This document shows positions 6,113 through 61,068 of a stretch of 64,000 nucleotides of DNA, piece after piece. This stretch comes from Fibrobacterota bacterium. GTDB lineage: Bacteria > Fibrobacterota > Fibrobacteria > UBA11236. A program made the translations under genes and the position numbers. The number at the start of each line of letters is the position of its first letter. Position 1 is the first letter of the stretch. The DNA lies in assembly GCA_947466585.1 (NCBI GenBank), contig CANIEU010000001.1, positions 48,414 through 112,413 on the forward strand. The letters run 5' to 3'. The notes beneath the pieces were generated by a model. That model searched no databases and had not been told where the DNA came from. It worked only from the letters and a program-made list of their open reading frames with translations.

Positions 6113-6211
6113 AACGCAAAAGTCATTTTTGGCCTTTGAACAGGTTTTGGATTGCCCCATGCTTTCTTCTTCCTTTCATATTTCCAATTTCATATTTCCG
6201 ATTTCCCTCGT

Positions 6212-7537
6212 ATGACCCAGCTCCAGCAAGTTCTCGATCTCGGCTACGAGGTGAAGCTTCCCGTTTTCGAGGGGCCGCTCGACCTGCTGCTGTACTTGGT
6301 TGAAAAGAACGAGCTGAATCCGCGCGATGTCTCGATCGCCACCATCACCGATCAATATCTCGAGCATCTTGATGCGCTGCAGAAAACCGATCTCGGTGCG
6401 GCGGGCGAATTTTTGGTGATGGCCTCGCGGCTCATGCGCCTCAAGGCGCGCGAACTGCTGCCCGCCGACGACAAGGATCCGCTCGAAGAGATGGAGTATC
6501 TGCTCGACCGGCAGGCCCTGATCGCGCAGATGCTGGAGTACCGGAAGTTTAAGGAAGCTGCGCGCTCGCTGCGCGACATCGAGGCCAAAAACTTCGGAGC
6601 GTTTCCGCGCGGGCGTTCCGAGAAGCCATCGGCCGCCGCACTGGCGGCCTTGTTCGCCCAACAATCCGCACAACAAGGCGGCGCGGAGGCGCTTCCGCTG
6701 CCCGAAGAGAACCTCTACGAAGAAGATGAGAACGGCGAAAGCGAAGCGGGCATTTACGATCTGCTCGCCGCCTTCAAATCGGTGCTGGCCTTGCGTCCGC
6801 GCATTCCCGTGCACGAAGTGGAGATCGACGAAGTTACCATCGAAGACCGCATGCAGCATGTGGAAACCGAGCTCATCAGCGCGGGCCGCATTTTGTTCGA
6901 GGATCTTTTCGGCAACGATCCGCGTCGCATGGCCAAGGTGGTGACCTTCATGGCCTTGCTTGAGCTGTGCAAGCTCGACCGCATCGTGGTGCGGCAGAAC
7001 CGCGCGCTCGGCACCATCTGGGTGTATCGCAAGGATTTGGAAAAGCCCGCCGCAAATAATTCGCAGGGTGGGAACAGTGGGAACGGTGCGGACGAACGCG
7101 CCCAGGCGATGGCCGAAGAGCTCGCCGCTGCAGACGCTCAGGCCGAGCCCGAAGAGACGGTGATCGAAGTGAAGCCGGGTCTGGTCGAATGGGTGCAAGA
7201 GCAGATTTTGCAGCGCAAAGCGCGCACAGCGCTCGACCAGATTCTCACAGATCTGGAACGCGAACTCAAGGAAGAGGATCGTGCGGCAGCCGCAGAGGCG
7301 CAGACCGCAGCCTCCGAAGGTGCCGAAGGCTCAGAAGGAATGGAAGGAACGGAAGAAACCGAGGCCCAGGAAACAGCCGAGGGTATCGAAGGGGTGCTGG
7401 AGGAGGACGGATCGATCTCTGCGTTGTCCACTCCCGAAATCGAGTCTCTGGCGGCGGCCACCCTGGACTCGGGGGCGCCCGACGTTCCCGAACGCTCGGC
7501 GCTTGCCGAAGAGCCCGAACCGGACGACGAGCCTTGA
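6212..7537 (+). CDS. scpA: Segregation and condensation protein A with roughly 200-aa acidic/Ala-Glu-rich C-terminal extension
   Basis: LPVFEGPLDLLLYLVEKNELNPRDVSIATITDQYLEHL ScpA core; start chosen at MTQLQQ (6212) in ORF 6152..7537 frame. Confidence 0.85.
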   Translation: MTQLQQVLDLGYEVKLPVFEGPLDLLLYLVEKNELNPRDVSIATITDQYLEHLDALQKTDLGAAGEFLVMASRLMRLKARELLPADDKDPLEEMEYLLDRQALIAQMLEYRKFKEAARSLRDIEAKNFGAFPRGRSEKPSAAALAALFAQQSAQQGGAEALPLPEENLYEEDENGESEAGIYDLLAAFKSVLALRPRIPVHEVEIDEVTIEDRMQHVETELISAGRILFEDLFGNDPRRMAKVVTFMALLELCKLDRIVVRQNRALGTIWVYRKDLEKPAANNSQGGNSGNGADERAQAMAEELAAADAQAEPEETVIEVKPGLVEWVQEQILQRKARTALDQILTDLERELKEEDRAAAAEAQTAASEGAEGSEGMEGTEETEAQETAEGIEGVLEEDGSISALSTPEIESLAAATLDSGAPDVPERSALAEEPEPDDEP

Positions 7538-10296: not shown

Positions 10297-12627
10297 TCAA
10301 AAAGTCGAAGCGGCGCTTTCGACGGCATTGTCGCTGACATTTGCGACGGCCCGATCCATGAAGTCTTCGGCTTCGCGACGGATTTCATCGGCGGTCGAAA
10401 GCTCGAGCAAGCGACCCACAAGGTCGCGGCAGTCGGGCATGGTCACGCGATCGAGCGCCTCGCGCAAGCCTTCGGCGGAGCCGGGTGCTATGCTGAGCGA
10501 GGTGAGTCCGAGCCCGAGCAAAAGCGAGAGTGCGACGGGATCGCCCGCCATTTCACCGCACACCGTCACCGGCTTGCCGGCGGCTTGCGCCGCATCGGCG
10601 ACGCGCTTGAGTGCATGCAGGAAGGCCGGATGGTAGGGGTGGTGGTATGCGGCCACGCGTTCGTTGCCGCGATCGATGGCGAAGAGATACTGAATGAGAT
10701 CGTTGGTGCCCAGGCACAAAAAATCGGACTCGGCGAGGAAGGCTTCGATCTGGATCACGGTGGAAGGAATTTCGATCATGATGCCGACGGGCGGGACCCG
10801 CAGCTTCTTGCCCATTTCGTTTTCGAGCTCGAGTGTGGCGGCCTGCAGGTGCGCTTTGATTTCGCGCAGCTCACGCAAGGTGGAAATCATGGGAATCAGC
10901 AACCGCATTTCGCCAAGCTGGGCGGCACGCAGCAATGCCCGCATGTGCGGTTTCAGAATTTCTGGACGCTGCAGCAACATGCGGATGGAACGCCATCCGA
11001 GGCTGGGATTTTCTTCGCGGCCCCAATCGAAGTACTTGAGTGGCTTGTCGCCGCCCACATCGAGAAGACGGAAGGTCACCCCGAAGTTGCCGCACCGCTC
11101 CATGACCTGACTGTAGACGCCAAACTGAGCCTCTTCGTCAGGGAAGGAATTACGGATCATGAAAAAGAATTCCGACCGGTAAAGCCCGACGCTTTGAATT
11201 CCGAAACGCCGCATGAGGTTGAGGTCGGAGAGCAGCGACACGTTGCCGGAAATGTGCACGGGATGACCGTCGCGCGTGCGGTCGCCGCCTTCGCGCGGCT
11301 TGACGGAACGGGGATGGGCGCGCGAGGCGGCTAGCAGGCGTTGATACTCGCGCACCACGTGGGCATCGGGACGGATGTAAACCAAACCCGAGTTGCCGTC
11401 GAGGATAACGCGCGTGCCCGAGGGCAGGAATTGCGTGAGCCCCGGAATGCCGATGAAGCACGGAATGTCGAGCGAGCGCGCAAGGATGGCGGCATGCGAA
11501 GTGCTACCGCCCGTCTCGCAGAGAATGCCGATGATTTTGCGAGACTGCAAATACACCAGATCGGAAGGCAGCAGTTCGAGGGCGGCCACGATCACACCTT
11601 GGTCCGAGCCGTTGCCCGGTTGGATACGGTCGTTGCGCTCGCCCAGGGCGTTCAGCAGGCGGAGCCCCACGTCGCGCAGGTCGGCCGCACGGGCGGCGAG
11701 CATGGCGATTCCCGAGTCCTGAAAGGCCTTGGCCATTTCGCGCGTGGCCACCTTGACCGCGAACACCGCTGTGGTGCGTTTTTCTTCGATATGGCCCCGG
11801 ATCGCATCGAGGTACGCTTCGTCGGCGAGGAACTGCTCGTGCGTTTCGAAAATCCGCGCGTCCATTTCGGCGAATATTTCGCCCGCGCGCTGCCGCAGCC
11901 AGCGGGATTCTTCGCGCGCGCGCGCTAGAGCCTTCTGCAGATTCGCGAGTTCTCCGGCGATGTCATCGGTTTCGGTGAAGTAAACCGTATCCCAAACGTG
12001 TTGCGTCTTCAGCACGAGCACCGAACCGTCGGCCACGCCGCCGAAGGCGGTTTGCGCGCGCAGAAACGGAGGCGCTTCCTTGGGGGCCACGCTGGCCTGG
12101 GCGCTCTCGGCGGTGGTTCTCACCGCGGCAGGCAACCGACTCTCGAGCAAGGTGCCGAGCTGCGCCGCCAAGGTGTAGGCCAAGTCCTCCACGGTGGGAC
12201 CGAAGGGCACAGCCTCCACACCCTGCAGAATGAGAACGCCGTCACCGCGCGCCTTGCCGGGCGAAATGGGAATGCCCAAAAAGCTCTCGAGCTTTTCCTC
12301 ACCCAGTCCGGGGAAAAATTTGAAGCGCGCATCGCGGCCGGGGTTTGCGATGTTCAGGATTTCGCCGCCTGAATACACAGCGCCCGTCAAACCCTCATCG
12401 GGTTCGAGCGACACTTCCGCCAGCGCCCCGCGGTTGAGGCCGTGGCCGGCGGCAAGTCGCAAGCGTCCCGCGGGAGCGTCGTGGAGATAAATGGAGCATA
12501 CTTCCACGCCCATCTTTTCGGAGATAAGGCGGGTCACGGCATCGAGCGCCGGCTGGATGTCACGCGACTCCAGAATCGTTCGGGCCACCGAACGGATGAT
12601 CTCAAATGCGATGCCGACTTCGGACAC
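10297..12627 (-). CDS. ptsP: Phosphoenolpyruvate--protein phosphotransferase with N-terminal GAF domain (EI-Ntr type)
   Basis: 776 aa; GAF region then PEP-utilizing enzyme domains (SHAAILARSLDIPC phospho-His region, C-terminal TIM barrel). Confidence 0.9.
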   Translation of the reverse strand: MSEVGIAFEIIRSVARTILESRDIQPALDAVTRLISEKMGVEVCSIYLHDAPAGRLRLAAGHGLNRGALAEVSLEPDEGLTGAVYSGGEILNIANPGRDARFKFFPGLGEEKLESFLGIPISPGKARGDGVLILQGVEAVPFGPTVEDLAYTLAAQLGTLLESRLPAAVRTTAESAQASVAPKEAPPFLRAQTAFGGVADGSVLVLKTQHVWDTVYFTETDDIAGELANLQKALARAREESRWLRQRAGEIFAEMDARIFETHEQFLADEAYLDAIRGHIEEKRTTAVFAVKVATREMAKAFQDSGIAMLAARAADLRDVGLRLLNALGERNDRIQPGNGSDQGVIVAALELLPSDLVYLQSRKIIGILCETGGSTSHAAILARSLDIPCFIGIPGLTQFLPSGTRVILDGNSGLVYIRPDAHVVREYQRLLAASRAHPRSVKPREGGDRTRDGHPVHISGNVSLLSDLNLMRRFGIQSVGLYRSEFFFMIRNSFPDEEAQFGVYSQVMERCGNFGVTFRLLDVGGDKPLKYFDWGREENPSLGWRSIRMLLQRPEILKPHMRALLRAAQLGEMRLLIPMISTLRELREIKAHLQAATLELENEMGKKLRVPPVGIMIEIPSTVIQIEAFLAESDFLCLGTNDLIQYLFAIDRGNERVAAYHHPYHPAFLHALKRVADAAQAAGKPVTVCGEMAGDPVALSLLLGLGLTSLSIAPGSAEGLREALDRVTMPDCRDLVGRLLELSTADEIRREAEDFMDRAVANVSDNAVESAASTF

Positions 12628-12636
12628 GGAAACCCC

Positions 12637-12927
12637 TCAGTCCCACTGAATGCCGGGCATCGGCGCATCGGGCAATTTGTCCTTGTTCTTTTTGGCCCAC
12701 TCGAATTTTTTCTCGAGCATGGCGAGCCGGGAATCTTCGACCCGCCGCGATTCGGCGAACTTGTCTTCCAGATCCTTCGCGCGGGTCTGATCGGCCTTCA
12801 GGAACGACTCAAGCGAAAGCGGCGCCTCCTTGTGGGGCGTCGCCTGCAGCACGCCTCCGGTCTCGGAGTCGACGACCAGCTTGGCCTTGCAGCACGGGCA
12901 TTCTATCTGGAGTTCCGGCGAAGACAT
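12637..12927 (-). CDS. Small zinc-ribbon protein (CPCC...C) of unknown function
   Basis: 96 aa ORF, IECPCCKAKLVVD N-terminal zinc-ribbon-like motif, Lys/Glu-rich tail. Confidence 0.45.
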   Translation of the reverse strand: MSSPELQIECPCCKAKLVVDSETGGVLQATPHKEAPLSLESFLKADQTRAKDLEDKFAESRRVEDSRLAMLEKKFEWAKKNKDKLPDAPMPGIQWD

Positions 12928-12961
12928 GGAATGAAAATACGAATTCTATCGGGCGTGGCGT

Positions 12962-14935
12962 CTAGAACTTTTCGACCTGAAACACCTGCATCACGGCCTT
13001 AAAAGGATTCAGTTCCACGAAGTTTCGGTCGGCCCAGGCATAGCTTTCTTCGCTGAAAACCTCGTGCACGCCGAAAATGTTCTCTCCGGCCAGGCCGAGG
13101 GCCGCGCGGTCGACGGTGATCCACCCCGCCTGGGTGGCGGCGGGGTCGAGATTGATCACGAAGAGGAGGCGGTCGTCGCCCTCCACCTTGGAGTAGGCCA
13201 ACATGTTCGGATTGTCGCAGTCGTGGAAACACAGGTTCTTGAGTTGGTGCATCGCCGGATGCTCGGCGCGCAGGCGGTTCAAAAGGCGGATGAAATCCTT
13301 GATGTGGCCGGGCTTGTTCCAGTCGCGCACGTTGTAAGCGTACTTCTCGGAGTCGTTGTACTCCTCCTTGCCCGGGTAGGGATCGTTCTCGCACAGTTCG
13401 TAGCCGTTGTACATGCCGTAGGCGCCGACCAAGGTGGAAGCCAGCGCGTGGCGGATGAGGAACATTTCGCGCGAAGCGTTCTGCAAATGCCAGGGGAGAA
13501 TGTCGGGCGTGGTGGCGAAGAAGATGGGCCGCATGTACAGCGACGGCTCCTGCTGGGTCAGATCCTCGCAGTATGCGCGCAACTCCGCTGCGGTAACGCG
13601 CCAGGTGAAATAGGTGTACGACAAATCGAAGCCGCCCTTGGCGAGACGCTTCATGATTTTGGGGCGCGTAAAAGCCTCGGCGAGGAACATCACTTCGGGA
13701 TGATCCTTCTTCACTTCGGCGATCATCCAATCCCAGAAGGCGAAGGGTTTGGTGTGCGGATTGTCGACACGGAAAACCGTCACGCCCATGTCGATCCAGA
13801 AATCGATCACCGATTTCAGCTCGCACCAAAGGGCCTCACGGTCATCGCAGAAGAAGTTGAGCGGATAGATGTCTTCGTAGCGCTTGGGCGGATTCTCCGC
13901 ACAACGGATGGTGCCGTCGGCCTCGCGATAGAACCAGTCCGGATGATCTTTCGCATACGGGTGATCGGGCGAACAGTTGAGTGCGAAATCGAGCACGACC
14001 TCGAAGCCTTCTTGACGGCAGCGGTCGAGAAAGTGGCGGCAGTCGGCCAGAGTTCCGAGTTCCGGATGGACCGCCTTGTGTCCACCGTCCCCGCCCTTGC
14101 CTTTCAGGCGATAATTCCCAATGGCATAGGGCGAACCGGGTTCCCCGGGTTGCGCGGTGAGCCCGTTGTTGCGGCCCTTGCGCTTGGTTTCGCCGATGGG
14201 ATGAATCGGCGGCAGATAAATGGTGTCGAAACCGAGATCCTTGACATAGGCGAGACGACGCTCCATGTCGGCAAAGGTTGCGCTCTTGCCGGTCACCGTG
14301 CCTTGCGAACGCGCGAACATTTCGTACCATGCGGCGAACTCGGCAGCTTTCGGATCCACGCGCAACAACCCGTAATGCGGATGCAGATACGGTTCTTCAA
14401 AGGCCGCGTACACGGCATAGCCTTCGCGGTTCAGCGTGCGCGCTTCGAGAGTGAACTCCCACTCGCCCAACGCATCGGGTTCGAACTCCCCGGCCCACGC
14501 GTCGTTATCAACAAAGCGCATCGGCGTGGTGCGCCATACCGTCTCGCCCTTGCGGCGGAACAACAGATCGGCCTCGCACTTTTCATGCCCGTCACGAAAG
14601 ATGTCGGCAGTGACGGTGACCGTTTCACCCAGCACGGCCTTGACGGGAAACAACCCGCCCTCGACCTGCGGCATCAAGTTTTCCACCACGGCGTGGGCGG
14701 TCAGGCGAGCCTCGGGGATCGCCGGTTTTTTCAGATCGATTTTGTTCGCGAGCTGTCGGGGCGCAGCATGCTGCGCCCTTTCGGCCTTCTTCGCAGGTGC
14801 CGGTTTTTTTGCCGACTTTGCAGCAGGCTTTGCGGCCTTCTTCACGACCTTCTTCACGATCTTCTTTGTGGCCTTCTTAACGACCTTCTTCACGATCTTC
14901 TTTGCAGGCACAGACTTCTTTTTCTTCGCGGGCAT
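12962..14935 (-). CDS. glgE: Alpha-1,4-glucan:maltose-1-phosphate maltosyltransferase GlgE (GH13) with about 50-aa Lys-rich histone-H1-like N-terminal tail
   Basis: GlgE N-domain signature FPVKAVLGETVTVTADIFRDGHE, GH13 catalytic core; start at MPAKKKK (ATG 14935..14933) overlapping upstream stop as TAATG. Confidence 0.8.
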   Translation of the reverse strand: MPAKKKKSVPAKKIVKKVVKKATKKIVKKVVKKAAKPAAKSAKKPAPAKKAERAQHAAPRQLANKIDLKKPAIPEARLTAHAVVENLMPQVEGGLFPVKAVLGETVTVTADIFRDGHEKCEADLLFRRKGETVWRTTPMRFVDNDAWAGEFEPDALGEWEFTLEARTLNREGYAVYAAFEEPYLHPHYGLLRVDPKAAEFAAWYEMFARSQGTVTGKSATFADMERRLAYVKDLGFDTIYLPPIHPIGETKRKGRNNGLTAQPGEPGSPYAIGNYRLKGKGGDGGHKAVHPELGTLADCRHFLDRCRQEGFEVVLDFALNCSPDHPYAKDHPDWFYREADGTIRCAENPPKRYEDIYPLNFFCDDREALWCELKSVIDFWIDMGVTVFRVDNPHTKPFAFWDWMIAEVKKDHPEVMFLAEAFTRPKIMKRLAKGGFDLSYTYFTWRVTAAELRAYCEDLTQQEPSLYMRPIFFATTPDILPWHLQNASREMFLIRHALASTLVGAYGMYNGYELCENDPYPGKEEYNDSEKYAYNVRDWNKPGHIKDFIRLLNRLRAEHPAMHQLKNLCFHDCDNPNMLAYSKVEGDDRLLFVINLDPAATQAGWITVDRAALGLAGENIFGVHEVFSEESYAWADRNFVELNPFKAVMQVFQVEKF

Positions 14936-16173
14936 TATGCTTCCACCTTGTTGCGTGCAACCAGTTCCTTGTAAAACGTCAACGTCTGCGCGGCCACGCT
15001 CTCCCAGGAGAAACGTTCCTCGACGCGCTTGCGGCCCGCCGCGGCAAAGGCCGCGCACTTGGCCGGATCTTCCACGAGTCCCGTGATCGCATCCGCGAGG
15101 CGGCGCGCAAAGTCGGCGGGATCCTTCGGCTCGAAATCGGTGCCACCCACGGGATCCGTGTCGACGAGGATTCCGGTTACACCGTCGGCCACGGCCTCGG
15201 GAATGCCGCCCACGCGGGAGGCCACCACGGGCGCTCCGCAGGCCATAGCCTCCAGGTTGATGATACCGAAGGGCTCGTACACCGAAGGGCACACGAACAG
15301 CGCCGCATGCGAATACAGGTTGATGACATCTTCGCGCGCGACCATGGCTTCGATCCAAATCACCGCGAGGTCAGGACGCTGTGCGCGCAGGTCGGCGACC
15401 CGTTGGCGCATTTCGGCACCGATCTCCGGAGTATCGGGTGCGCCGGCGCAGAGCACGATTTGCGAACCTTGCGGCAAATGCGCGAGGGCATGCAGCAAAT
15501 GCAGGATGCCCTTCTGCCGCGTGATGCGTCCGACGAAAAGAATAAAGGGCTTATCGGCATCGATGCCGTGTTTCTTGAGCAGCTCCGGATTCGGCTTGTT
15601 GCGGTATTCGTTGACGTCGATGCCGTTGGGAATGACGCGGATATTGGCGGGATCAACGCCGTACAGTTCCTGCACGTCGCGTTTCATCGATTCGGAAACC
15701 GCGACCACGCCGTCTGCGTTTTGATAGGCGGTTTTCTCCAGCCACGACGAAGCGTGGTAGGCGTTGCCGAGTTGCTCGACCTTCCACGGGCGGTGCGGCT
15801 CCAAGGAGTGTGTGGTGAGCACCAGAGGAACGCGCAGCAGTTGTTTCACAAGACAGCCTGCAAAGTGCGCATACCACGTGTGGCAATGCACGATGTCGGA
15901 GGCCGTCACGGTGCCGGCCATCATCAAGTCGCGGGCGAGCGTATCCATGAGTTTGGCATGCTGCGCGTTCTGGTTGGGCAAGGTGAAGTCGGGGGTGAGT
16001 CCGCGGGCGGTGATGTCGCCGTCCTGCTCGTTTTGCTTGCCGAAACAAAGCACTTCGACGGGATTTTTACCCGGTTCGAGGCCGGCGAGGGCGCGGCTCA
16101 AATACTCGACATGGACGCCTGCGCCGCCGTAAACGTGCGGCGGATATTCATTGGTCAAAAGGGTAATGCGCAT
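14935..16173 (-). CDS. glgA: GT4 glycosyltransferase of the actinobacterial GlgA/GlgM (alpha-maltose-1-phosphate synthase / glycogen synthase) type
   Basis: MRITLLTNEYPPHVYGGAGVHVEYLSRAL matches the GlgM/GlgA N-terminus; GT4 fold; coupled to glgE. Confidence 0.8.
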   Translation of the reverse strand: MRITLLTNEYPPHVYGGAGVHVEYLSRALAGLEPGKNPVEVLCFGKQNEQDGDITARGLTPDFTLPNQNAQHAKLMDTLARDLMMAGTVTASDIVHCHTWYAHFAGCLVKQLLRVPLVLTTHSLEPHRPWKVEQLGNAYHASSWLEKTAYQNADGVVAVSESMKRDVQELYGVDPANIRVIPNGIDVNEYRNKPNPELLKKHGIDADKPFILFVGRITRQKGILHLLHALAHLPQGSQIVLCAGAPDTPEIGAEMRQRVADLRAQRPDLAVIWIEAMVAREDVINLYSHAALFVCPSVYEPFGIINLEAMACGAPVVASRVGGIPEAVADGVTGILVDTDPVGGTDFEPKDPADFARRLADAITGLVEDPAKCAAFAAAGRKRVEERFSWESVAAQTLTFYKELVARNKVEA

Positions 16174-16229
16174 CGTAGTCGGAATTGTAATTCCTGAGCG
16201 CGAAACGCGGAGGAAGCCGAAAAAAGGGG

Positions 16230-16262
16230 GACGGCGATACCGCCCCCGAAGACCCCACCCAT
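16230..16262 (-). terminator. Hairpin + T-run on minus strand downstream of the deacetylase gene
   Basis: minus-strand reading gggggcggtatcgccgtccccc followed by tttttt. Confidence 0.45.
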
Positions 16263-16292
16263 CCGACCTTCCGACGATCCCTTAACGTTCAA

Positions 16293-17579
16293 CTAAGGCA
16301 GGATGGTGACCGGAACCTTGCGGGCATTCCCGGAGAACCCGGGGGTCAAGGTGATCTGATAGAGGCCCGCGGCGGGTGCGGTGTGCAACGATACGGCCTG
16401 TTCCGCGCCGCCGCCCGTGCGGAAACGCCCCTTCTCCACCAAGACTCCCGTCACCGAATGCAGTGCGAGCGTATAGGTGCCTTCGGGCAGGCCCTTGAGA
16501 CGAACGATGCGACCCGTGACGCGCGCCTGCAGGGAGGAGTTCCGGAAGCGCACCGACGGGGCCACGGCCACCGTGCCCTTGGGATAAACGTCCATCTGCA
16601 ACTTCATGAAATCGACCACATAGGAGCTGTCGGCCTGACGCAGAACATAAGCGTTGTTCTGCACCACCACGGCGGAATCCCCGAAGGTCGCTTGGTCCAG
16701 CTTGACCTTGAGCAACAAGGACTTGGGCAACTTCGCATGCGGCGCGACCCACTGGATCTTCCAGCCGTTGCCGTTCACAACCGCCTTGGCGGTATCCATG
16801 GTGAAGTGCGCACGGTAATAGGAGCCGACCCGCTCGTAGGTATCGATCCACACGCCTGCCGAGATGGCCGCGTCGAGCATCGTACGGTTGTTCGCCGGCG
16901 TCATGCTGTATTGATCCGGGCTCGTGGGGGTGACATCGTGAACGATGGTGACATACCAACGATTGTTGGTTTTCGCGGTGTTGATTCTTGTCACGGCAGT
17001 GCTGGCACTCGTCGGGCCGAGAATCTCGCCGGGGATTGCCATCCAGTCGCTTGGCTGGGTTCCCCAGTTCAGGGTCGGATTCGCGCAACTGCGCGCCATG
17101 AAGTTCTCGGCGCTCACGCCGTTCTTCGCCGTGGCGTTGGCCGTCAAATTGCAGTTCGGATAGGCGAACGTCAGCGACTTGACCGTGCTATCGACCTTGC
17201 GCAACGTATCCGCCATCGCCTTGACCACCTTCGTGACGGAATCCCCGTTGGATCCGTTCACGTTTTCGTGGAAGTAGGTGTGGTTCGTGAGTTCCTGGCC
17301 GTTGCGGGCCGCCTGAATCCATTGAGCACGGCGGGCATTGAAATCTCCGATGTTCTGAATCGAAATAAAGAAGGTCGCCTTGATGCCGAGCGAATCGAGC
17401 TGGGGAATCAGGTAGGGAATCTGACTTGTGCGCGCGTCGTCGTAGGTAAAGCTGACCGCACCGGTGTGCCCGTTCCACGGCACCGTGGTGACGGGAGCGC
17501 CACCAGCCTGCAAAGCCAACACCAAGGAAACCGCAGGAACCGCAATGACGGCGCGAAGATGTTTTTGGATAAAAGTCAT
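16293..17579 (-). CDS. Secreted polysaccharide deacetylase (CE4/NodB-like) with possible T9SS-type C-terminal domain
   Basis: Signal peptide; GAVSFTYDDARTSQIPYLIPQLDSLGIKATFF NodB motif region; C-terminal beta-rich tail. Confidence 0.7.
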   Translation of the reverse strand: MTFIQKHLRAVIAVPAVSLVLALQAGGAPVTTVPWNGHTGAVSFTYDDARTSQIPYLIPQLDSLGIKATFFISIQNIGDFNARRAQWIQAARNGQELTNHTYFHENVNGSNGDSVTKVVKAMADTLRKVDSTVKSLTFAYPNCNLTANATAKNGVSAENFMARSCANPTLNWGTQPSDWMAIPGEILGPTSASTAVTRINTAKTNNRWYVTIVHDVTPTSPDQYSMTPANNRTMLDAAISAGVWIDTYERVGSYYRAHFTMDTAKAVVNGNGWKIQWVAPHAKLPKSLLLKVKLDQATFGDSAVVVQNNAYVLRQADSSYVVDFMKLQMDVYPKGTVAVAPSVRFRNSSLQARVTGRIVRLKGLPEGTYTLALHSVTGVLVEKGRFRTGGGAEQAVSLHTAPAAGLYQITLTPGFSGNARKVPVTILP

Positions 17580-35498: not shown

Positions 35499-36053
35499 AT
35501 GACTAAGCAAATAGTCTTCCTTGGAATCCTGATTTTATCTCTCCTCAGCCTTTCAAATGCTGGGCAAAATACGGTTAGCCAAAGCGGAGCAACTGTTGAG
35601 AAATGGAAGTCCTTAGAAAACTGGCGAATGTTAAGGAATGACATGGGTCAGAAAAGTGTGAGAAAAATATTGGGGGAGCCAGAACGTATCAATGGCGGAG
35701 TAGTAGCTTTTTGGAACTATCCAAATGGCGGCGACGTTACCTTCATGGATGGCAAAGTGTCTGGATGGAGTGAGCCACTTAGATGGGATGAGGGATCAGG
35801 AAACGCCTCCTCATCAGATATTGATCCAGATAAATTAGTGCTAGGAATTTTACTGGTTGCGATTCTCTTCTATTTTACACCGATTCTGTGGGTGTTGTTT
35901 TCCAGCCGTTCAACTGGTGGGGCTAAATTCGGTTGGTTCCTTATAACCATTGTGTTTTCTTGGTTAGGATTCGCAGCCTTTTTGATTTTGACGCAAACGG
36001 CAAAGGCCCGTAAGCAATTAGAATCGAAAACATACGGAGGACAAAGTGAGTAG
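35499..36053 (+). CDS. Secreted/membrane protein: BamE (SmpA/OmlA)-like domain plus C-terminal two-TM PLDc_N-like segment
   Basis: Signal peptide; W.L..GM....V...LG.P..I...W.Y..GG.V.F.....V.GW.EP pattern; C-terminal ILFYFTPILWVLF...FGWFLITIVFSWLGFAAFLI. Confidence 0.5.
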   Translation: MTKQIVFLGILILSLLSLSNAGQNTVSQSGATVEKWKSLENWRMLRNDMGQKSVRKILGEPERINGGVVAFWNYPNGGDVTFMDGKVSGWSEPLRWDEGSGNASSSDIDPDKLVLGILLVAILFYFTPILWVLFSSRSTGGAKFGWFLITIVFSWLGFAAFLILTQTAKARKQLESKTYGGQSE

Positions 36054-36405
36054 ATATCATTTCGCAATTTTGATTTCGCTCCTTGTGTCAGCAACCCAAG
36101 CATCTTCACAAACCAGCTACGATTCCATGTCGCAACAGCTTGAAGAGAAGATCATATTACTTGAAAAACGGATTTCCACAATTGAAGATCAATTGAGGGA
36201 AGGGAAAGCACCGATTCAAGCTCCTCCGGGAAAAGCGAGCTGGCGACAGCTTAAAAAGGGCATGTCTGAGGCCGAAGTCGAAGGATTGCTAGGCAGCCCT
36301 GCCAAGATTGAAAATTATGGATCCTTCAGTATTTGGAACTATCAGAAGGGTGGTTCTGTTCAATTCAACGAGGACGCATTAGTCAAAGGTTGGTTCGAGC
36401 CCTGA
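36046..36405 (+). CDS. Secreted BamE-like protein, paralog of preceding ORF, with coiled-coil N-region
   Basis: Signal peptide MSRYHFAILISLLVSATQASSQ; shares the W..L..GM..EV..LLG.P..I...W.Y.GG.V.F....V.GW.EP pattern with 35499..36053. Confidence 0.5.
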   Translation: MSRYHFAILISLLVSATQASSQTSYDSMSQQLEEKIILLEKRISTIEDQLREGKAPIQAPPGKASWRQLKKGMSEAEVEGLLGSPAKIENYGSFSIWNYQKGGSVQFNEDALVKGWFEP

Positions 36406-36430
36406 CTCAAATTCTCTTACGCTATGACTT

Positions 36431-36593
36431 CGGTCTGATGTATGAGACGTACCACACGATGCTGTTCGGCCTGTTGCGCTGCGTGGGCATTGCGTCGCAG
36501 ATCGTGTGGGAACTCACCGAGGCGCGGGGTGACAAGGGAATGCCCATCGTGCGGCCGAAGTACGTGTACACGTGGCCGGCTGTAAAGGGGTGA
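36431..36593 (+). pseudogene. Duplicated 3' fragment of the citrate synthase gene (last roughly 50 codons) with its downstream sequence
   Basis: Translation ...YHTMLFGLLRCVGIASQIVWELTEARGDKGMPIVRPKYVYTWPAVKG closely matches citrate synthase C-terminus; similarity continues about 90 nt past the stop. Confidence 0.7.
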
Positions 36594-36893
36594 TTTTTAC
36601 AGGAAATTGGTGTGTGGAAGGGGCTCCTAGAAGGGGGCCCTTTCCTTTTTAGTCAGAGTTTTTAGAGTCCCCGTGAAGGGGTTTACGAAGTAAGAGCCTA
36701 GGTTTATACTAAAGCTCGTTCACCTAACGACTGAGGCATTTAATCTGCAGTGCTAGTCAAGGTTATTACCACTAGACCAATTTCTGGCCAGATAACCCCG
36801 TAAACACAAATTATCAAAGGCGCCCATCCAATTTGTTGGTTTCGGCCATATGGCAAACCCTACAACTACTCAGAATATGACAGGCAGGCGGAA

Positions 36894-37808
36894 TTGATGA
36901 AGGCAATACAGATATATAAGCCTGGCTATCTCTATGTACTAGTTCACCCATCTAATCCAAATCTCTATAAGATCGGAGTAACTGTCCTTCAACCTGAGAA
37001 GCGATTGGCCCAGCATAACAATCAACACAACAAATACGCGGGCAAGATCGTCAAAGAGTCGGGTCAAAAATGGGAGCTTAAGGCACACATTTCCGTCCCC
37101 GACCCATATTGGGCTGAAAGTGCCTTTTGGGGAGCTACGCATTTCCCGGAAATTCCTTATCGAAAAGGCATCGAAATCGAAATAATGACTTGGGATTTGG
37201 TGCAAATTGGTTTGGAGGCGGCAAAACAGGCCGGGGTTCGACCAACCCCAGCGTCTTACCCTGATTATGTGTATGCCTATACGGCGTCAGTCCAAAAACG
37301 ACTGGAAGGCAGAGGCATTTCCCTCTTAGGATACGTGCGAAGCATGGTGAGCGGAAGATCCGATTTCCGATGCGAAAATGGACACGAATGGCACACGACT
37401 CCTAAACTCGTAGCTGATGGAGAGGGTTGTCCCATTTGTGGGATTGGCACACAGAGTTTAACAGAGATCAGAGAGCGTATTAAGGCCGGCGTTATATTCT
37501 TACTGACACATGAAGGTAGGCCTGGATATTTTAAAATTGGGCTGCATTTAGGCGCTATCGAAAATGCTTTCCAAAACTGGCCTTTTGGCGATTGGCAGTG
37601 TCATCGTTATAGGAATGTGGAGGAAGTCGAACTAGCCATTACAGTTATTTGGGAGTTACTAGGATTGCCTCTTCCCCATGACCAAGAAGCATTCATGATG
37701 GATAAAAAGGAAGCGGAAAAAGCTTTCAGAGATTTGACTTACGTTATCCAGGAACGGACTGCCGCCACCGGGAGGGTCAAAGAGAAACCCAATGACTCCA
37801 ATCGCTAA
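36894..37808 (+). CDS. Tandem T5orf172/MUG113-type GIY-YIG-superfamily protein with an internal zinc ribbon
   Basis: GYLYVLVHPSNPNLYKIGVTVLQPEKRLAQHN matches T5orf172 N-terminal consensus; degenerate repeat GVIFLLTHEGRPGYFKIGLH; CENGHEWHTT...CPICG between them. Confidence 0.55.
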   Translation: MMKAIQIYKPGYLYVLVHPSNPNLYKIGVTVLQPEKRLAQHNNQHNKYAGKIVKESGQKWELKAHISVPDPYWAESAFWGATHFPEIPYRKGIEIEIMTWDLVQIGLEAAKQAGVRPTPASYPDYVYAYTASVQKRLEGRGISLLGYVRSMVSGRSDFRCENGHEWHTTPKLVADGEGCPICGIGTQSLTEIRERIKAGVIFLLTHEGRPGYFKIGLHLGAIENAFQNWPFGDWQCHRYRNVEEVELAITVIWELLGLPLPHDQEAFMMDKKEAEKAFRDLTYVIQERTAATGRVKEKPNDSNR

Positions 37809-38235
37809 ACAAACCGCCCCTTCGGTCAAATCCTTCCTCGCCTCGCTCGACGACGAACAGACCCAAGCGGATGCGAAAATGCTCGTCGCTCTGATGAAGC
37901 GCATCAGCGGGAAAACCCCAAAGATCTGGAACGTCGGCACGATCGGCTTCGACACCTACCACTACAAGTACGACAGCGGACGCGAGGGCGACAACGCCGT
38001 CCTCAGTTTTTACCCCCGCAAGGGCAAGTACACCATTTACCTGATGGACGGCTGCGCACGCCATTCCAAATTGTTGGAAAAACTCGGGAAGCACACCACA
38101 AGCCGCGTTTGCCTCTACTTCAAACGACTCAGCGATTTGGATTTAACCGTCCTGGAAAAAATCCTGGAACAGTCCTACGCCTACATCAAGGCGCAAGACG
38201 GGAACATGGGCCAAGTGCAAGAGGGATGGCGATAA
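37792..38235 (+). CDS. DUF1801 (YdhG-like) domain protein, overlapping the preceding gene by 17 nt
   Basis: 147 aa; pattern consistent with DUF1801. Confidence 0.55.
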   Translation: MTPIAKQTAPSVKSFLASLDDEQTQADAKMLVALMKRISGKTPKIWNVGTIGFDTYHYKYDSGREGDNAVLSFYPRKGKYTIYLMDGCARHSKLLEKLGKHTTSRVCLYFKRLSDLDLTVLEKILEQSYAYIKAQDGNMGQVQEGWR

Positions 38236-45201: not shown

Positions 45202-45230
45202 GCATTTTGTCTTCTACGGCTTTCCGTCGA

Positions 45231-45270
45231 AAACAAAAAACCCCGCTGAATCAGCGGGGTTTTTTGTTTT
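45231..45270. terminator. Bidirectional rho-independent terminator between speA and convergent gene
   Basis: aaacaaaaaa ccccgctgaatcagcgggg tttttgtttt. Confidence 0.75.
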
Positions 45271-45295
45271 CGGTCCCACGGCAAACCGTTCACTA

Positions 45296-54066: not shown

Positions 54067-55841
54067 GCACTTCTCTTCCGCGGACCGCCCGACTCCTCGG
54101 GATTGCTTGCGCGATCGGGTTCGCGATCGGATTCGGCACTCGCTGCGCGCATGTGGAACCACCCTCCGGCGGCCCCGTGGACGCAACGCCGCCGGCGGTG
54201 ATCGCGGTGTACCCGGCACCCGGGGCACTCAACGTGCCACGCGACGCCCGCGCCGTCTTCCAGTTCGACGAGTGGATCGACCGCTTTGCCGCACGCAACC
54301 AGGTGATGGTCTCTCCGCCCTACCGCACCCGCACGCATATTGAAGTCGATGGCGATCGCTTGCTGGTGCTACCTCCCGGTGGCGAAGGTCTTCGCGCCAA
54401 TACCACGCATGTGTTGACCGTACTCAGCACCTTGAAAGACTTGCATAGCAACGCGCTCGGGCGCGAGTTCACCCTGCGCTTTTCAACCGGGCCGCAGCTC
54501 GATTCCGCGGGTCTGAGCGGCACGCTTAGCGCCGACTCGCGGCGCGGTCGCTTGATGGCGGCTTTGTACCCCGTCACCGCCGACTCCACGTCGAAACCCT
54601 GGAGCGATCTGCCCGCGTGGCTGGCTGCCGCCGATTCGGCGGGCCGCTTCCGTGCCGAAGGGTCGCCGGTGGGCGACTACGCACTCTTCGCATTCGAGGA
54701 CGTGAACGGAAACTTCGCATTCGACGCAGGTTTCGAAAACGCGGCTACCGGAGCCACCCGCATCCCCCTGCGTCCGCGCGGACCTGACCAGTCGCTGCGT
54801 CTAACCGCGCTCGACACCTTGCCGCTGCGCATCGCGCAGGCTTCGTTCGAGTCGGACCTTGCGCCCGAAGATTCAGCCAAACCCACTCCGGACTATTTGC
54901 CGGGCACGGTGGCCATCCAATTCACACGCAACGCCCACCCGTTGCGCGCCGCCGAAGCCGCGCGGTACCGCATTCTTCCCGACTCCGGCGCTCCCCTGCC
55001 GGTGCGTTCGGTCAGTTGGAGCCCCACGCGCAACGTGTGGGTTTTGGAAACCCCGCCGCTGCGTGCGAACAAACCCTACCGCGTGGAACTGCGCGGACGC
55101 CCCGATTTTCCCGGACGTCCCGGTCTGACGGTGGAGGCATCCGGAGGACTCGATACCTCGGTGATCTTCCTTGCGGAACGCGCCCCCAAGCCGGCGGAGT
55201 GGAGTTTGCTTGCAATACGGGCCGCCGGCACCACCGGCCCCTCGGGACTGCCTCAAATCGCAACCGCGCTCATCCCCGGAAGCCGTTTGTTCTTTACCAG
55301 TAACCTGCCGCTCACCGAAACGCGCTGGTCCCTGCTCGAAAAGAACCTCTCCGCCCGCTTCTCGGGAGACACGGTGCCGGTGGCGGCGCGCGTGCGGCGC
55401 GCGGACAACCTGACCTTCGCTCTTGATCTCTCGCGCCCGCTGCGCGCCGGGGGCGGGCTCGAACTCAAACTGCTTGGCTCCCCGGGAGACTCGACTCCGC
55501 CGAAGGGATTGTTCGGCGGCCGCACGACGGATTCGTCTCAGAGCGGTTCCGTGCGGTTTTCCGCAGCGACTGCGAACGGAAAAACCTTCTGGTTGCGTTC
55601 CCATTCCGAGTTGGCGCCAAACGAATTCACCTTGCTGCGTGCGGGCGACAGCCTCAAAGCCGTCGCCCTACCGTCGGGCCGTTACCGCTTGTTCGCCTTT
55701 CAGGATCGCGACGGCGACGGCGTCTGGGACGCGGGCGCCCTCCGTCCATGGATCGCCCAGGAACCGTTCGAATCGCTGCTGGATTCGGTGACCGTGATGC
55801 CCGGAGAAGGCGTGGACGTGACCGGGCGTTTGAAGAAGTAA
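54063..55841 (+). CDS. Lipoprotein with Big_5/SbsA-type Ig-like domains
   Basis: ATPPAVIAVYPAPGALNVPRDARAVFQFDEWID Big_5-like module; ATGA-coupled to lepB. Confidence 0.5.
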   Translation: MSTSLPRTARLLGIACAIGFAIGFGTRCAHVEPPSGGPVDATPPAVIAVYPAPGALNVPRDARAVFQFDEWIDRFAARNQVMVSPPYRTRTHIEVDGDRLLVLPPGGEGLRANTTHVLTVLSTLKDLHSNALGREFTLRFSTGPQLDSAGLSGTLSADSRRGRLMAALYPVTADSTSKPWSDLPAWLAAADSAGRFRAEGSPVGDYALFAFEDVNGNFAFDAGFENAATGATRIPLRPRGPDQSLRLTALDTLPLRIAQASFESDLAPEDSAKPTPDYLPGTVAIQFTRNAHPLRAAEAARYRILPDSGAPLPVRSVSWSPTRNVWVLETPPLRANKPYRVELRGRPDFPGRPGLTVEASGGLDTSVIFLAERAPKPAEWSLLAIRAAGTTGPSGLPQIATALIPGSRLFFTSNLPLTETRWSLLEKNLSARFSGDTVPVAARVRRADNLTFALDLSRPLRAGGGLELKLLGSPGDSTPPKGLFGGRTTDSSQSGSVRFSAATANGKTFWLRSHSELAPNEFTLLRAGDSLKAVALPSGRYRLFAFQDRDGDGVWDAGALRPWIAQEPFESLLDSVTVMPGEGVDVTGRLKK

Positions 55842-59754: not shown

Positions 59755-61068
59755 TCAGTTCTTCAGTTTCCCCAAGATCGCGTCGACGCTTTTCCGGAAG
59801 CTGTCGTCTTTGTCCATTGCCTTTTCAATCGTCTTGATGGCGTGCACCACCGTGCTGTGGTCGCGGCCGCCGAAACGTTGGCCGATCGACTTGAGCGAGG
59901 CCGAGGTGAGCTCCTTGACGAGGAACATGGCGAGCTGGCGGGCTTGGGCGACTTCCTTGGTGCCGCGCCCCTGCTCCAGAATTTTGTCGACTTCCACCGC
60001 AAAGTAATCGGCCACCATGGTGGTCACGTCCTCGGCGGTCACGCGTTTGCCGGGCCGCTGGGAACCCGTGCGGCGCACGATCTCTTCGGCAAGCTCCATG
60101 GTGATGTCGGCATGCTGGATGGAGGCCTGCAGGAGCAACTGCCGGATGGCGCCTTCCAGAATGCGGATGTTGGAGTCGATGGCTTCGGCAAGATAGGAGA
60201 TCACGTCTTCCGAAATGTCGAGATTGAGAGCCTGCGCCTTGCGCCGCAGAATGGCTTCGCGGGTTTCGCGGTCAGGCAGTTGGATGTCGACGAACAAACC
60301 CCATTGAAAACGGCTCACCAAACGGTCTTGCAGGCCCTTCAGTTCGGCCGGCGGAGCGTCGCTGGTGAGCACGATCTGCTTCTGGCTTTGGTGGAGGAAG
60401 TTGAAGACGTGGAAGAACTCTTCTTGCGTACGATCCTTGCCGCTGAGGAATTGCACGTCGTCCATGAGCAACACGTCCACCTCGTGACGGTAGAACGCCG
60501 ACATTTCGTTGATGCGGTTGTGCTGGATCGACTCCACGAATTCGCGGTAGAAGGCTTCGGATGTGACGTAGCGGATTTTTTTGCCGGGCAATTCGCGGCG
60601 CACATGATTGCCGATGGCCTGCAACAGGTGGGTTTTGCCGAGTCCCACACCGCCGTAGATCAGCAGGGGGTTGAAACGCGTGCCGCCGGGCTCCTTGGCC
60701 ACGGCGAGGGCGGCCGAATAGGCGAACTGGGAGTTGCTGCCGACCACGAATTCTTCGAAGGTGTAACCGGGATTCAAATCGATGGCGGGCATGCTGCTGA
60801 ACGGCACCGCCGGAGCGTGGTTCAGGGGGCTTTGCGGCACGGACTGGCGGCGGAAGCGGGCTTTAAGACGGCGGCCGGTGGCTTCGAAAAAGCAGTGCTC
60901 GATCAAACCCGAATAGGCCATGGCGAGATGGTCCACGTCGAGCGGGTCGGGCACGCCAAGCACCAAGGTGGAATCACCGACTTCCTGGATCTTCAGCGGT
61001 TCGATCCACTGGCCGAACACGTCGTCGGAAAGTTGTTCGCGCAGGCATGCCACGCTGGCCTTCCACAT
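59755..61068 (-). CDS. dnaA: Chromosomal replication initiator protein DnaA (alternative Ser-rich extended start at 61326)
   Basis: Walker A GGVGLGKTHLL, AAA+ box VII/sensor motifs, C-terminal DnaA-box-binding domain (HSTVVHAIKTIE). Confidence 0.9.
   Translation of the reverse strand: MWKASVACLREQLSDDVFGQWIEPLKIQEVGDSTLVLGVPDPLDVDHLAMAYSGLIEHCFFEATGRRLKARFRRQSVPQSPLNHAPAVPFSSMPAIDLNPGYTFEEFVVGSNSQFAYSAALAVAKEPGGTRFNPLLIYGGVGLGKTHLLQAIGNHVRRELPGKKIRYVTSEAFYREFVESIQHNRINEMSAFYRHEVDVLLMDDVQFLSGKDRTQEEFFHVFNFLHQSQKQIVLTSDAPPAELKGLQDRLVSRFQWGLFVDIQLPDRETREAILRRKAQALNLDISEDVISYLAEAIDSNIRILEGAIRQLLLQASIQHADITMELAEEIVRRTGSQRPGKRVTAEDVTTMVADYFAVEVDKILEQGRGTKEVAQARQLAMFLVKELTSASLKSIGQRFGGRDHSTVVHAIKTIEKAMDKDDSFRKSVDAILGKLKN

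Follow-up and report, generated by a model that had tools for sequence, protein, structure and literature searches.

A lysine-rich, disordered N-terminal tail predicted on the GlgE maltosyltransferases of a Fibrobacterota clade

We analysed a 64-kb stretch of DNA from a member of the Fibrobacterota (here called the window) and its glgE gene, the product of which is a predicted maltosyltransferase with a lysine-rich N-terminal tail. The gene lies directly behind a glycosyltransferase family 4 (GT4) gene of the glgM type and is followed by a small gene, orf96, and by a ptsP-like gene (Table 1). The GlgE protein begins with MPAKKKKSVPAKKIVKKVVKKATKKIVKKVVKKAAKPAAKSAKKPAPAKKAE; its canonical N-domain starts at about residue 73, and ENLMPQVEGGLFPVKAVLGETVTVTADIFRDGHE begins at residue 85. 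A purely mechanical open reading frame (ORF) extends further, to a TTG at 15358 within glgM, and comparison with relatives supports the ATG at 14935 over that codon as the glgE start. A Shine-Dalgarno (SD)-like AAGGTGG is found at 14949-14943, 7 nt 5' of this ATG. On the opposite strand, a 636-aa ORF (13064-14974, forward strand) mirrors nearly all of glgE and was taken as a spurious shadow ORF of a G+C-rich gene.

Table 1. Features of the glgM-glgE locus in the window, with hairpins found in the tail-coding DNA of related loci (L numbers).
Feature	Position	Strand	Basis or detail
glgE, whole ORF, 657 aa + stop (ATG 14935, stop 12962)	12962..14935	-	Translation, Pfam, Foldseek
Polycationic disordered N-terminal tail of GlgE, residues 1-72	14720..14935	-	AlphaFold pLDDT, composition
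GlgE catalytic core, residues 73-657: domain N, much reduced S, GH13 barrel, domain C	12962..14719	-	Pfam, alignment
36-nt tandem repeat with 12-nt sub-period, encoding (KKxVKKxxKKxx)n	14828..14905		Tandem Repeats Finder
Perfect 20-nt palindrome, arms GGGCGCAGCA and TGCTGCGCCC, in-frame R-A-Q-H-A-A-P	14759..14778		10-nt arms; 0.01 expected by chance
TAATG, glgM stop/glgE start overlap of 1 base	14933..14937	-	Read directly
glgM, GT4 of maltose-1-phosphate synthase type, 412 aa	14935..16173	-	TIGR02149, 6TVP
Terminator-like hairpin + T-run between deacetylase gene and glgM	16227..16247	-	9-pair stem, 7 G-C, then CTTTTTT
orf96, 96 aa, N-terminal CxxC (CPCC), downstream operon partner (probable)	12637..12927	-	No Pfam family at E <= 0.001
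ptsP-like GAF-enzyme I gene (PEP-utilising), last gene of block	10297..12627	-	Pfam GAF, PEP-utilisers_N, PEP-utilizers, PEP-utilizers_C
Tail hairpin, L089			GGGTGACGCACGCGTCACCC
Tail hairpin, L086			AGGGCGAGCACTAGCTCGCCCT, two copies
Tail hairpins, L088			GGGCGATGCACGCATCGCCC, one copy; GGGGCAAATAAYCATTTGCCCC, two copies
Tail hairpins, L090			GGCCGCAGCATGCTGCGGCC, two copies; GGCCGCGGCTCACCGCGGCC, one copy
Tail hairpin, L171			GGGGCGCATCGCGATGCGCCCC, predicted from peptide GAHRDAP before the DNA was seen
Tail hairpins, L172 and L173			L172 with one mismatch; L173 with 7-bp stem

We observed that the tail of the window protein contains 25 Lys, 2 Arg and 2 Asp+Glu, for a net charge of +25. In an AlphaFold model, the predicted local distance difference test score (pLDDT) is below 50 at residues 1-4 and 9-67, no secondary structure precedes residue 74, and the first β-strand comprises residues 82-88. 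Tandem Repeats Finder resolved the tail repeat as 2.2 copies of period 36 with 92% matches (score 142), and in a repeat-family search the family containing the 36-nt unit covered 14816-14911. Within the encoded peptide, KKIVKKVVKKATKKIVKKVVKK repeats strictly every 4 residues, each unit comprising two Lys and two aliphatic residues. The richest 30-aa segment of the tail holds 16 Lys, the runner-up in any six-frame ORF of the window holds 8, and no other ORF segment in the window passed a filter for Lys-rich, acid-poor sequence. The original prediction had described a Lys-rich, histone H1-like N-terminal tail on GlgE, encoded by tandem DNA repeats, and a start codon that shares one base with the stop codon of the GT4 gene; all of these features are present, the shared base lying in the TAATG read from 14937 to 14933. 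Sampling of strains gave little material on repeat number, as four samples differed by 0-1 single-nucleotide polymorphism in 3.2 kb and the 90% cluster had a single member. A signal peptide was rejected on reading the sequence, because no hydrophobic core follows the basic stretch. Programmed -1 frameshifting at A AAA AAA runs 5' of a hairpin was also considered and rejected, as the spacing in the window is about 25 nt and the arrangement is not conserved. One relative (L173:2505-2541) has an A8 run followed after 6 nt by the hairpin GGCGCGC-ACCGCA-GCGCGCC, which resembles a dnaX-type -1 frameshift site; since it is not conserved in other loci, it is probably a coincidence of Lys codons.

Behind the tail, the protein has the body of a GlgE. 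Pfam assigned PF11896 (GlgE_dom_N_S, 103 bits), PF21702 (GLGE_C, 81 bits) and PF00128 (Alpha-amylase, 38 bits), all above their cut-offs, and comparison with Streptomyces coelicolor GlgEI scored 493 bits, with RVDNPH, LAEAFT and TPDIL aligned to the matching conserved motifs. These motifs, which following the crystallographic literature we take to hold the catalytic Asp nucleophile, the Glu acid/base and the transition-state Asp, contribute D391, E420 and D478, and all three residues are invariant in a 32-sequence alignment. For the AlphaFold model (predicted template modelling score 0.79), the top 15 Foldseek matches in the Protein Data Bank (PDB) were all GlgE, with TM scores of ~0.72. By domains, catalytic residues and fold, the window protein is classed as a member of the GlgE family (GH13_3 maltosyltransferases), with maltosyl transfer as its predicted activity.

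The body departs from the solved structures in one respect, which the original prediction did not note. Domain S, a helical insert of ~90 aa after domain N that forms part of the dimer interface in those structures, is nearly absent: the N/S Pfam model matched only at positions 3-86 of 179, residues 166-191 of the window protein (~26 residues) replace residues 107-202 of S. coelicolor GlgEI (~96 residues), and the AlphaFold model has a single short helix (174-179) in this region. The same reduction (window 13400-14450, reverse strand) was seen throughout the short clade of enzymes with a 575-600-aa core, tail-less Fibrobacter enzymes included. Because the whole short clade has it, the missing domain S reads as a variant architecture and is no ground for exclusion from GlgE. 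Taken together, the window enzyme resembles the GlgEs of S. coelicolor and Mycobacterium tuberculosis in Pfam domains, motifs and fold, and is likewise partnered with a GlgM in the actinomycete manner, but compared with the crystallised enzymes it alone carries a 72-aa polycationic disordered tail, is nearly without domain S and belongs to a Fibrobacterota host.

The upstream GT4 protein exceeded the cut-off of TIGR02149 (glgA_Coryne; 302 bits) with a score of 491 bits. In a comparison with M. smegmatis GlgM (PDB 6TVP) it reached 341.6 bits over the full length (residues 1-404), compared with 126 bits for the next PDB family, and about half of its residues are identical to those of the mycobacterial enzyme over that length. 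We place it in the GlgM subfamily, as had been proposed from the window alone, and predict that it acts as a maltose-1-phosphate synthase.

We next consider translation of the tail. The clade to which the window protein belongs comprises proteins P0001-P0077 (57-100% identical) among the 120 best protein hits, and 72 of its members have complete N-termini. Thirteen sequenced tails (2,676 nt), the extents of which were set by the glgM stop and the conserved core, landmarks independent of ORF calling, contain no stop codon in the GlgE frame, compared with 25 and 21 in the other two frames, and their G+C content at third codon positions (GC3) lies above their overall G+C content. In every locus with upstream DNA, the called glgE start overlaps the 3' end of glgM by 1, 4, 11 or 23 nt; the TAATG itself recurs in L086, and the overlap in the other relatives is 4, 11 or 23 nt. 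The complete N-termini begin with MP (34) or MA (28) in most cases, and 42 of the 72 fit M-x(1-3)-KK. On these comparisons, translation almost certainly begins at the ATG at 14935 and includes the tail.

A different start would turn the tail into something else. If about 87 upstream codons were untranslated and initiation took place at Met88 (MPQVEGG) or another internal codon, the Lys-codon stretch would be an intergenic leader bearing repetitive extragenic palindromes (REPs). An SD-like GGTGGA lies 7 nt 5' of the Met88 ATG, GTG codons within the tail could in principle act as starts, and REPs at the 5' ends of annotated ORFs often prove to be extragenic (PMC3733652). Met88 itself contradicts this scenario, which the original prediction had set against its own reading: relatives have Q, L, R or A in its place (ENLQP, ENMRP, ENLAP), it falls inside the first predicted β-strand of domain N (E82-88), and the conserved core begins upstream of it, at IPxARxTAHAVVE. 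The untranslated leader is further opposed by the distribution of stop codons, by the conserved MPAKKK-type N-terminus overlapping the glgM stop, by an excess of Lys far above Arg with depletion of acidic residues in one frame only, and by the embedded hairpins described below, all 13 of which occupy one codon phase. We consider such a leader scarcely credible, and we hold with high confidence that the gene encodes a GlgE with a disordered polycationic tail of ~72 residues before a normal catalytic body.

To place the tail within the family, we compared it across the clade and beyond. Nearly all clade members share an M-P/A-x-K-K start, a stretch rich in Lys, Ala, Pro, Ser and Thr, and then IPxARxTAHAVVE. 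Tails of at least 25 aa were present in 58 of the 72 complete members (median 77, range 25-178 aa), and the net charge of the tail in the clade was +15.7 ± 5.0. Lys, Arg and Asp+Glu make up 18.6%, 3.7% and 2.4% of the tails, compared with 6.0%, 5.8% and 13.9% of the cores; the 13 sequenced tails contain 22.8% Ala, 19.8% Lys, 13.5% Pro, 9.3% Ser, 7.6% Thr and 1.8% Asp+Glu. Across the clade the sequence of the tail is not conserved and its charge is. One Fibrobacterales cluster has a short tail (27 aa, charge +7), and some members keep only 7-20 tail residues and still begin MPxKK. The exact window protein was found on 14 metagenomic contigs (up to ~497 kb), and the named relatives are metagenome-assembled genomes of Fibrobacterota, Fibrobacteria, Fibrobacteres or Fibrobacterales, which agrees with the earlier impression of a non-actinobacterial genome.

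For the other phyla, we read ~65 GlgE loci among the matches listed by scans with universal GlgE motifs; these come mostly from distant phyla and include Verrucomicrobiota, Proteobacteria, Acidobacteriota, Bacteroidota, Actinobacteriota, Nitrospirota and Planctomycetota. No comparable tail was seen in these loci, and most of the GlgEs in them start ~10-25 residues before the conserved VIE motif. The more distant of the 120 best protein hits likewise had no comparable tail, and the GlgE of a Fibrobacter sp., which begins MAEFPEKKDNLVIEN, has none. On these comparisons the tail is a clade-wide trait of Fibrobacterota-type GlgEs, which answers in the affirmative the earlier question of whether it is lineage-specific. 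Within the literature searched, GlgE and 'lysine-rich' were found together in no paper.

Lys-rich tails did not appear as a genomic habit, either in the window or in ~20 kb around four relatives. The one additional Lys-rich match in the neighbourhoods of the relatives was an out-of-frame artefact inside scpA, and in the neighbourhoods read the tail is specific to GlgE. The ScpA protein itself (window 6152-7537, forward strand) is ~440-460 aa long instead of the usual ~250 and has a long Glu/Ala-rich acidic C-terminal extension, opposite in charge to the GlgE tail.

High Lys and low Arg despite 60% G+C, the near exclusion of acidic residues and full sequence turnover form the pattern expected from selection for diffuse positive charge. 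These data suggest that selection preserves the composition and charge of the tail and not its sequence, and that the tail evolves fast, by tandem duplication of short coding repeats and with REP-like palindromes settled in frame. A hugely variable length and complete sequence turnover would also suit a translated but functionless tail. Such a tail would be a permissive, disordered stretch that has grown through slippage of AAG-rich repeats and insertion of REPs, and its A-rich Lys codons would be kept only because, in a genome of 60% G+C, they leave the site of re-initiation behind glgM free of structure. Tandem duplications are evident in several tails, REP-like elements have settled in them, the members with 7-20 residues still start MPxKK, and, away from the hairpin, the tail mRNA folds no more strongly than shuffled sequences do (z = -0.59). 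Neutral drift, however, should restore Asp/Glu and Arg, and yet Asp+Glu stay at 2.4% and K:R at ~5:1 among members whose cores are only 57% identical. An effect on initiation would require few codons, not 25-178, and the same inflation is found in no other gene of the window. We regard a functionless spacer of this kind as unlikely, and selection on charge remains our reading of the composition.

We observed a second kind of repeat inside the tail-coding DNA, one that the original prediction had not mentioned. The 20-nt palindrome (Table 1) is unique within the window and as RNA folds into a hairpin of -16.5 kcal/mol (z = -3.7). Tail peptides of close relatives share the loose motif [GR]-A-x-H-x-x-P, which led to a comparison of their DNA, and the tails of eight relatives were found to hold 1-3 G+C-rich hairpins each, with stems of 8-11 bp and loops of 0-6 nt. 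These occupy the corresponding place in the tail and the same codon phase (xGG GCN … NGC CCx). A scan for perfect stems found no hairpin in the tails of four loci (L085, L087, L092 and L175) and a weak one in that of L174. The four tails without hairpins are polycationic nonetheless, and the hairpins are therefore not the reason for the tail.

The stems differ between species and remain complementary. In a 12-sequence hairpin alignment, 95.8% of cells pair, a value that is inflated by ascertainment, as is the lack of G-U pairs, because the scan took only perfect Watson-Crick stems. Six of the 8 pairs have changed on both sides (21 cells) with no one-sided change, none of 500 shuffles equalled the observed pairing or covariation, and shifting the partner by ±1-3 columns reduced pairing to 35-47%. 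The L081 and L090 stems differ solely by a symmetric G/C swap. What can be relied on is that most close relatives have a stem of 8 bp or more at the homologous site and that the stems differ.

Such conservation of pairing raises the possibility that selection acts on the nucleic acid. Hairpins in the polycistronic mRNA could serve as a barrier to 3' exonucleases, a processing site or a ribosome pause and so set the GlgM:GlgE ratio, with the tail as a tolerant coding disguise, an idea that is compatible with a tethering role for the tail. The hairpins are stable as RNA (-14.5 to -19 kcal/mol, z -2.4 to -5.7) and present in one to three copies per tail; REPs are known mRNA stabilisers and often transcribed (PMC3733652); and because glgM and glgE overlap, there is no intergenic room for such an element. 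This reading has to contend with the polycationic tails that have no hairpin, or a weak one in L174, and with variation in copy number and in the distance of the hairpin from the start (24-270 nt). The lack of G-U pairs would fit a DNA palindrome better, a weak argument given that the scan accepted Watson-Crick pairs only. Less GlgE relative to GlgM would also risk a build-up of maltose-1-phosphate, the toxicity of which is established for mycobacteria. Selection at the level of the nucleic acid as the reason for the tail seems to us distinctly unlikely. A role of the hairpins in mRNA stability or processing is possible, and most likely they are tolerated passengers in a permissive region.

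The hairpins resemble a known class of repeat, the REPs. Their 5' flank is conserved (…CC GTA G/A GGGC…), which gives a GTAG or GTAA head on the tail copies of L088, L171, L172 and L086; the extragenic copies of L086 and L175 have GTAG. Heads are degenerate in some copies, with GCAG or GCAA in L088, L089 and L090 and GAAA in the window. Outside glgE, three extragenic copies occur in 22 kb of L086: GTAGGGGCGAATGATCATTCGCCCCTAC, which lies between convergent genes, and two others, one of them (GGGGCAAATAAATATTTGCCCC) almost identical to the tail copies of L088. In 22 kb of L175 there is one intragenic copy and one extragenic copy, the latter (TTTGTAGGGGCAACCCATGGGTTGCCCCTACAAA) lying between ptsP and dnaA (L175:17011-17050). 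A scan for the pattern plus a stem found the GTAG-hairpin family only in L086/L091, L088, L171 and L175, and none in the other-phyla loci or the rest of the window.

GTAG-tagged REPs include intragenic, translated copies, which are over-represented at N-termini (Di Nocera et al. 2013, PMC3733652). Like these REPs and the Rickettsia palindromic elements (PMC3733652), the hairpins are short, G+C-rich stem-loops, 20-40 nt in length and, in several relatives, headed by GTAG; they are dispersed between convergent or co-directional genes (L086, L175) and also lie within ORFs, often near the N-terminus and in frame. Unlike GTAG REPs, the copies have been retained at a single orthologous site in different species while their stems underwent compensatory changes, and they have been multiplied by tandem duplication inside a low-complexity coding tail; the window copy is GAAA-headed and single in 64 kb. 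By sequence, the palindromes of the relatives appear to fit the definition of GTAG REPs, and the window copy is a single, head-degenerate relic. The REP-like palindromes in the tail are a known kind of element in a new setting.

Several further palindromes were noted. A dispersed REP family within the window was looked for and rejected, as there was no second copy with up to 3 mismatches and no GTAG hairpin elsewhere in the 64 kb. The imperfect hairpin GGGCGAC…GTCGCCC (55643-55668) falls within a gene for a protein with an Ig-like domain and appears to have arisen by chance. At 45228-45272, a 45-nt perfect palindrome with 22-bp arms and flanking A/T runs does not belong to the GTAG family; it stands between a convergent arginine decarboxylase gene and a 328-aa gene and looks like a bidirectional intrinsic terminator. 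In L175 (10382-10422, within the glgE of P0026, also in P0024 and P0025), a GTAG-headed, 41-nt perfect palindrome with 20-bp arms (-49 kcal/mol as RNA) is translated as AAVGATRRVAPTAA within the loop between domains N and A that replaces domain S. The REP-like family can therefore settle in frame at a second site of glgE. No transposase domain of the REP-associated tyrosine transposase (RAYT, IS200/IS605-type) kind was found among the window ORFs scanned, a scan that was not exhaustive in a genome that is incomplete.

The translationally coupled glgM-glgE pair opens a conserved block. Wherever the DNA upstream of glgE was seen in relatives, glgM stands immediately 5' of it, and the order glgM-glgE-orf96-ptsP is kept in relatives with GlgEs 60-82% identical to that of the window, with a gene inserted in some. 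Copies of orf96 that are 60-72% identical occupy the same place, between glgE and ptsP, in L085, L086 and L087, and a 93-96-aa ORF lies directly 3' of glgE in most other relatives. Because of this conservation, orf96 is probably part of the same operon as glgE. The hairpin upstream of glgM marks a separate transcription unit starting at glgM; no terminator-like site was found between glgM, glgE, orf96 and ptsP, and the only one near the ptsP end is at 10323-10304. A sigma-70 promoter scan of 10-18 kb gave no hit, although promoters of the phylum may not fit the consensus, and an Rfam search of 12500-16400 returned no family.

The immediate neighbours of the pair are not glycogen genes. Upstream of glgM lie genes for a polysaccharide deacetylase, a GDSL lipase and an esterase, and the rest of the window is of the housekeeping kind (scpAB, glmS, RNase R, icd, gltA, fumarase, speA, dnaA and others). 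The dnaA gene (59755-61326, reverse strand) is ~47 kb from ptsP in the window and directly follows ptsP in L085, L087 and L175; in the window and L086, ptsP is followed by other genes instead (dapF, scpAB, glmS). The block has therefore moved relative to the origin region. A stretch at ~35500-37810 has a GC3 of 0.43-0.45, compared with 0.7-0.8 elsewhere, and holds an ORF with a T5orf172 domain; insertion of a small piece of foreign DNA is its probable origin.

This neighbourhood bears on two other functions that could be assigned to the tail. In one, the tail would bind anionic membrane phospholipids, with (KKxV)n as a cationic amphipathic element that would bring GlgE to the membrane, where it might, for example, feed a surface or capsular α-glucan. 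The strict period of the window repeat is in keeping with this, two Lys and two aliphatic residues falling in each turn-like unit, as are the deacetylase and esterase genes upstream; in mycobacteria, GlgE-derived glucan also reaches the capsule (review PMC11046441). The aliphatic periodicity is, however, particular to the window protein and P0004, whereas most tails are rich in Pro, Ala, Ser and Thr without a hydrophobic face, and AlphaFold predicts no helix. The terminator-like site separates the deacetylase gene from glgM, this neighbour is not conserved in L085, L087 and L175, and the block has no exporter. Membrane binding is in our view a highly improbable function for the tail.

In the other, the tail would be regulatory, as a target of phosphorylation or acetylation or as an autoinhibitory arm on GlgE activity. 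M. tuberculosis GlgE is down-regulated by Ser/Thr phosphorylation (PknB), and we count this in favour. The tails are rich in Ser and Thr, as well as Lys, and being disordered they are accessible; the block also includes a gene for a PtsP-type kinase of nitrogen/carbon signalling. Against this, the tails share no conserved site or motif, the 72 residues of the window tail include no more than 2 Ser and 1 Thr, and domain scans of the window ORFs revealed no Ser/Thr kinase. We judge regulation by the tail very improbable.

The pathway itself offers a setting for a different role. The glgM-glgE pair would encode the maltose-1-phosphate route to α-1,4-glucan, in which GlgE adds maltosyl units to the growing polymer. 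Build-up of maltose-1-phosphate is toxic in mycobacteria, and coupled, stoichiometric expression of glgM and glgE has a rationale for that reason: tight coupling would stop the toxic intermediate from outrunning its consumer. The tail might then serve as a non-specific electrostatic tether to a polyanion, such as nucleoid DNA, RNA or polyphosphate, and so put the glucan polymerase, together with its bound growing granule, at a defined site; the original prediction had likewise suggested tethering, to nucleic acid, polyphosphate or granules.

We draw this reading from other bacterial tails. Lys-rich, H1-like tails bind DNA, and in PhaF also RNA, and space granules of polyhydroxyalkanoate (PHA) or polyphosphate (polyP) (PMC9239181, PMC12818456). 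Because the known bacterial Lys/Ala/Pro tails bind DNA, RNA and polyphosphate non-specifically, and because the tails of PhaF and AlgP set the location of storage granules with respect to the nucleoid, the GlgE tail may be read as a tether. Like PhaF (PHA granules) and AlgP (polyP granules) of Pseudomonas, the window protein joins a disordered Lys/Ala/Pro polycationic region with a period-4 repeat to a storage-polymer protein, and the tails are similar in the magnitude of their net charge (+35 and +55 for PhaF and AlgP, +25 here). The tails differ in that those of PhaF and AlgP are C-terminal KPAA repeats on non-enzymatic scaffolds, whereas that of the window is N-terminal, of the KKxV/KKAx type, much shorter and attached to a polymerase.

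Several observations weigh against a tether. The role rests on analogy and compositional constraint. A search with the tail only (80 aa) against 5.8 billion proteins gave no match at E <= 0.001, and the tail has neither the KPAA repeat of AlgP and PhaF nor detectable similarity to either. Tails shorter than 25 aa occur in 14 of the 72 complete members, and the tail is therefore not essential for catalysis. Net charge increases with length (r = 0.64), so that a fixed charge optimum is not proven. Genes that might hint at a partner, whether for a polyphosphate kinase, a phasin-like protein or other glycogen functions, are missing from the window, and the warning that N-terminal REPs may be extragenic (PMC3733652) is countered here by comparative evidence only. 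The comparison made at the outset with AlgP-type polycationic tails thus stands for the Lys/Ala/Pro-rich, acid-poor, disordered character of the tail and fails for KPAA repeats and homology: the tail resembles AlgP and PhaF in composition and likely in mode of action, not in descent. Overall, we think it plausible, if somewhat short of probable, that the tail serves to anchor GlgE, along with the nascent α-glucan particle, on a cellular polyanion.

A fuller version of the tethering model can be framed. In it, the clade fused an H1-like region to an α-glucan polymerase that itself, in place of a scaffold protein like PhaF or AlgP, anchors granule synthesis to nucleoid, RNA or polyphosphate, and the DNA of the tail became a landing pad for REPs, the stems of which are maintained by compensatory changes and tune the glgM-glgE message. 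This combination is possible but rather doubtful; if it were true, one stretch of DNA would be under simultaneous selection at the protein level, for charge, and at the nucleic-acid level, for stems.

The locus also bears on the distribution of the pathway. Homologues of GlgM (43-56% identity) were found within 10 kb of GlgE in L008, L011, L012, L013, L016, L045, L049, L050, L051, L067 and L069, loci that carry the labels Omnitrophota, Planctomycetia, Rhodospirillaceae, Accumulibacter, Azonexus, Riflebacteria, Methylomirabilota, Elusimicrobia and Hydrogenedentota. GlgM-GlgE pairs thus seem to be widespread outside Actinobacteria, in at least nine other lineages. The original prediction of a GlgE-pathway locus in a non-actinobacterial genome holds in so far as a GlgM-type GT4 lies next to GlgE, and overstated the rarity of such a locus. 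The logic is that of the mycobacterial GlgC-GlgM-GlgE pathway, in which GlgM is next to GlgE and maltose-1-phosphate is made and consumed at once; unlike there, the window genes overlap (TAATG) and share a block with a CxxC protein and a PtsP-like GAF-enzyme I, and domain scans of the window ORFs found no treS, pep2, glgB or glgC, nor glgP or ppk. A 2024 review still calls GlgM mostly actinobacterial (PMC11046441), a statement that these pairs would qualify.

In conclusion, the GlgE tails may be informative in several ways. The REP-like palindromes extend translated intragenic REPs to a phylum that was not among the carriers of GTAG repeats in the 2013 survey (PMC3733652), and they would be a clear case of stem-preserving evolution within coding sequence. 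As a natural series of charge-conserved, length-variable disordered regions (25-178 aa), the tails may show what selection sees in bacterial disorder. To our knowledge, how glycogen granules are positioned in bacteria is essentially unknown. Granules of PHA and polyP use the H1-like tails of dedicated scaffold proteins, and a tail borne by the polymerase would give a simple handle on the positioning of glycogen.

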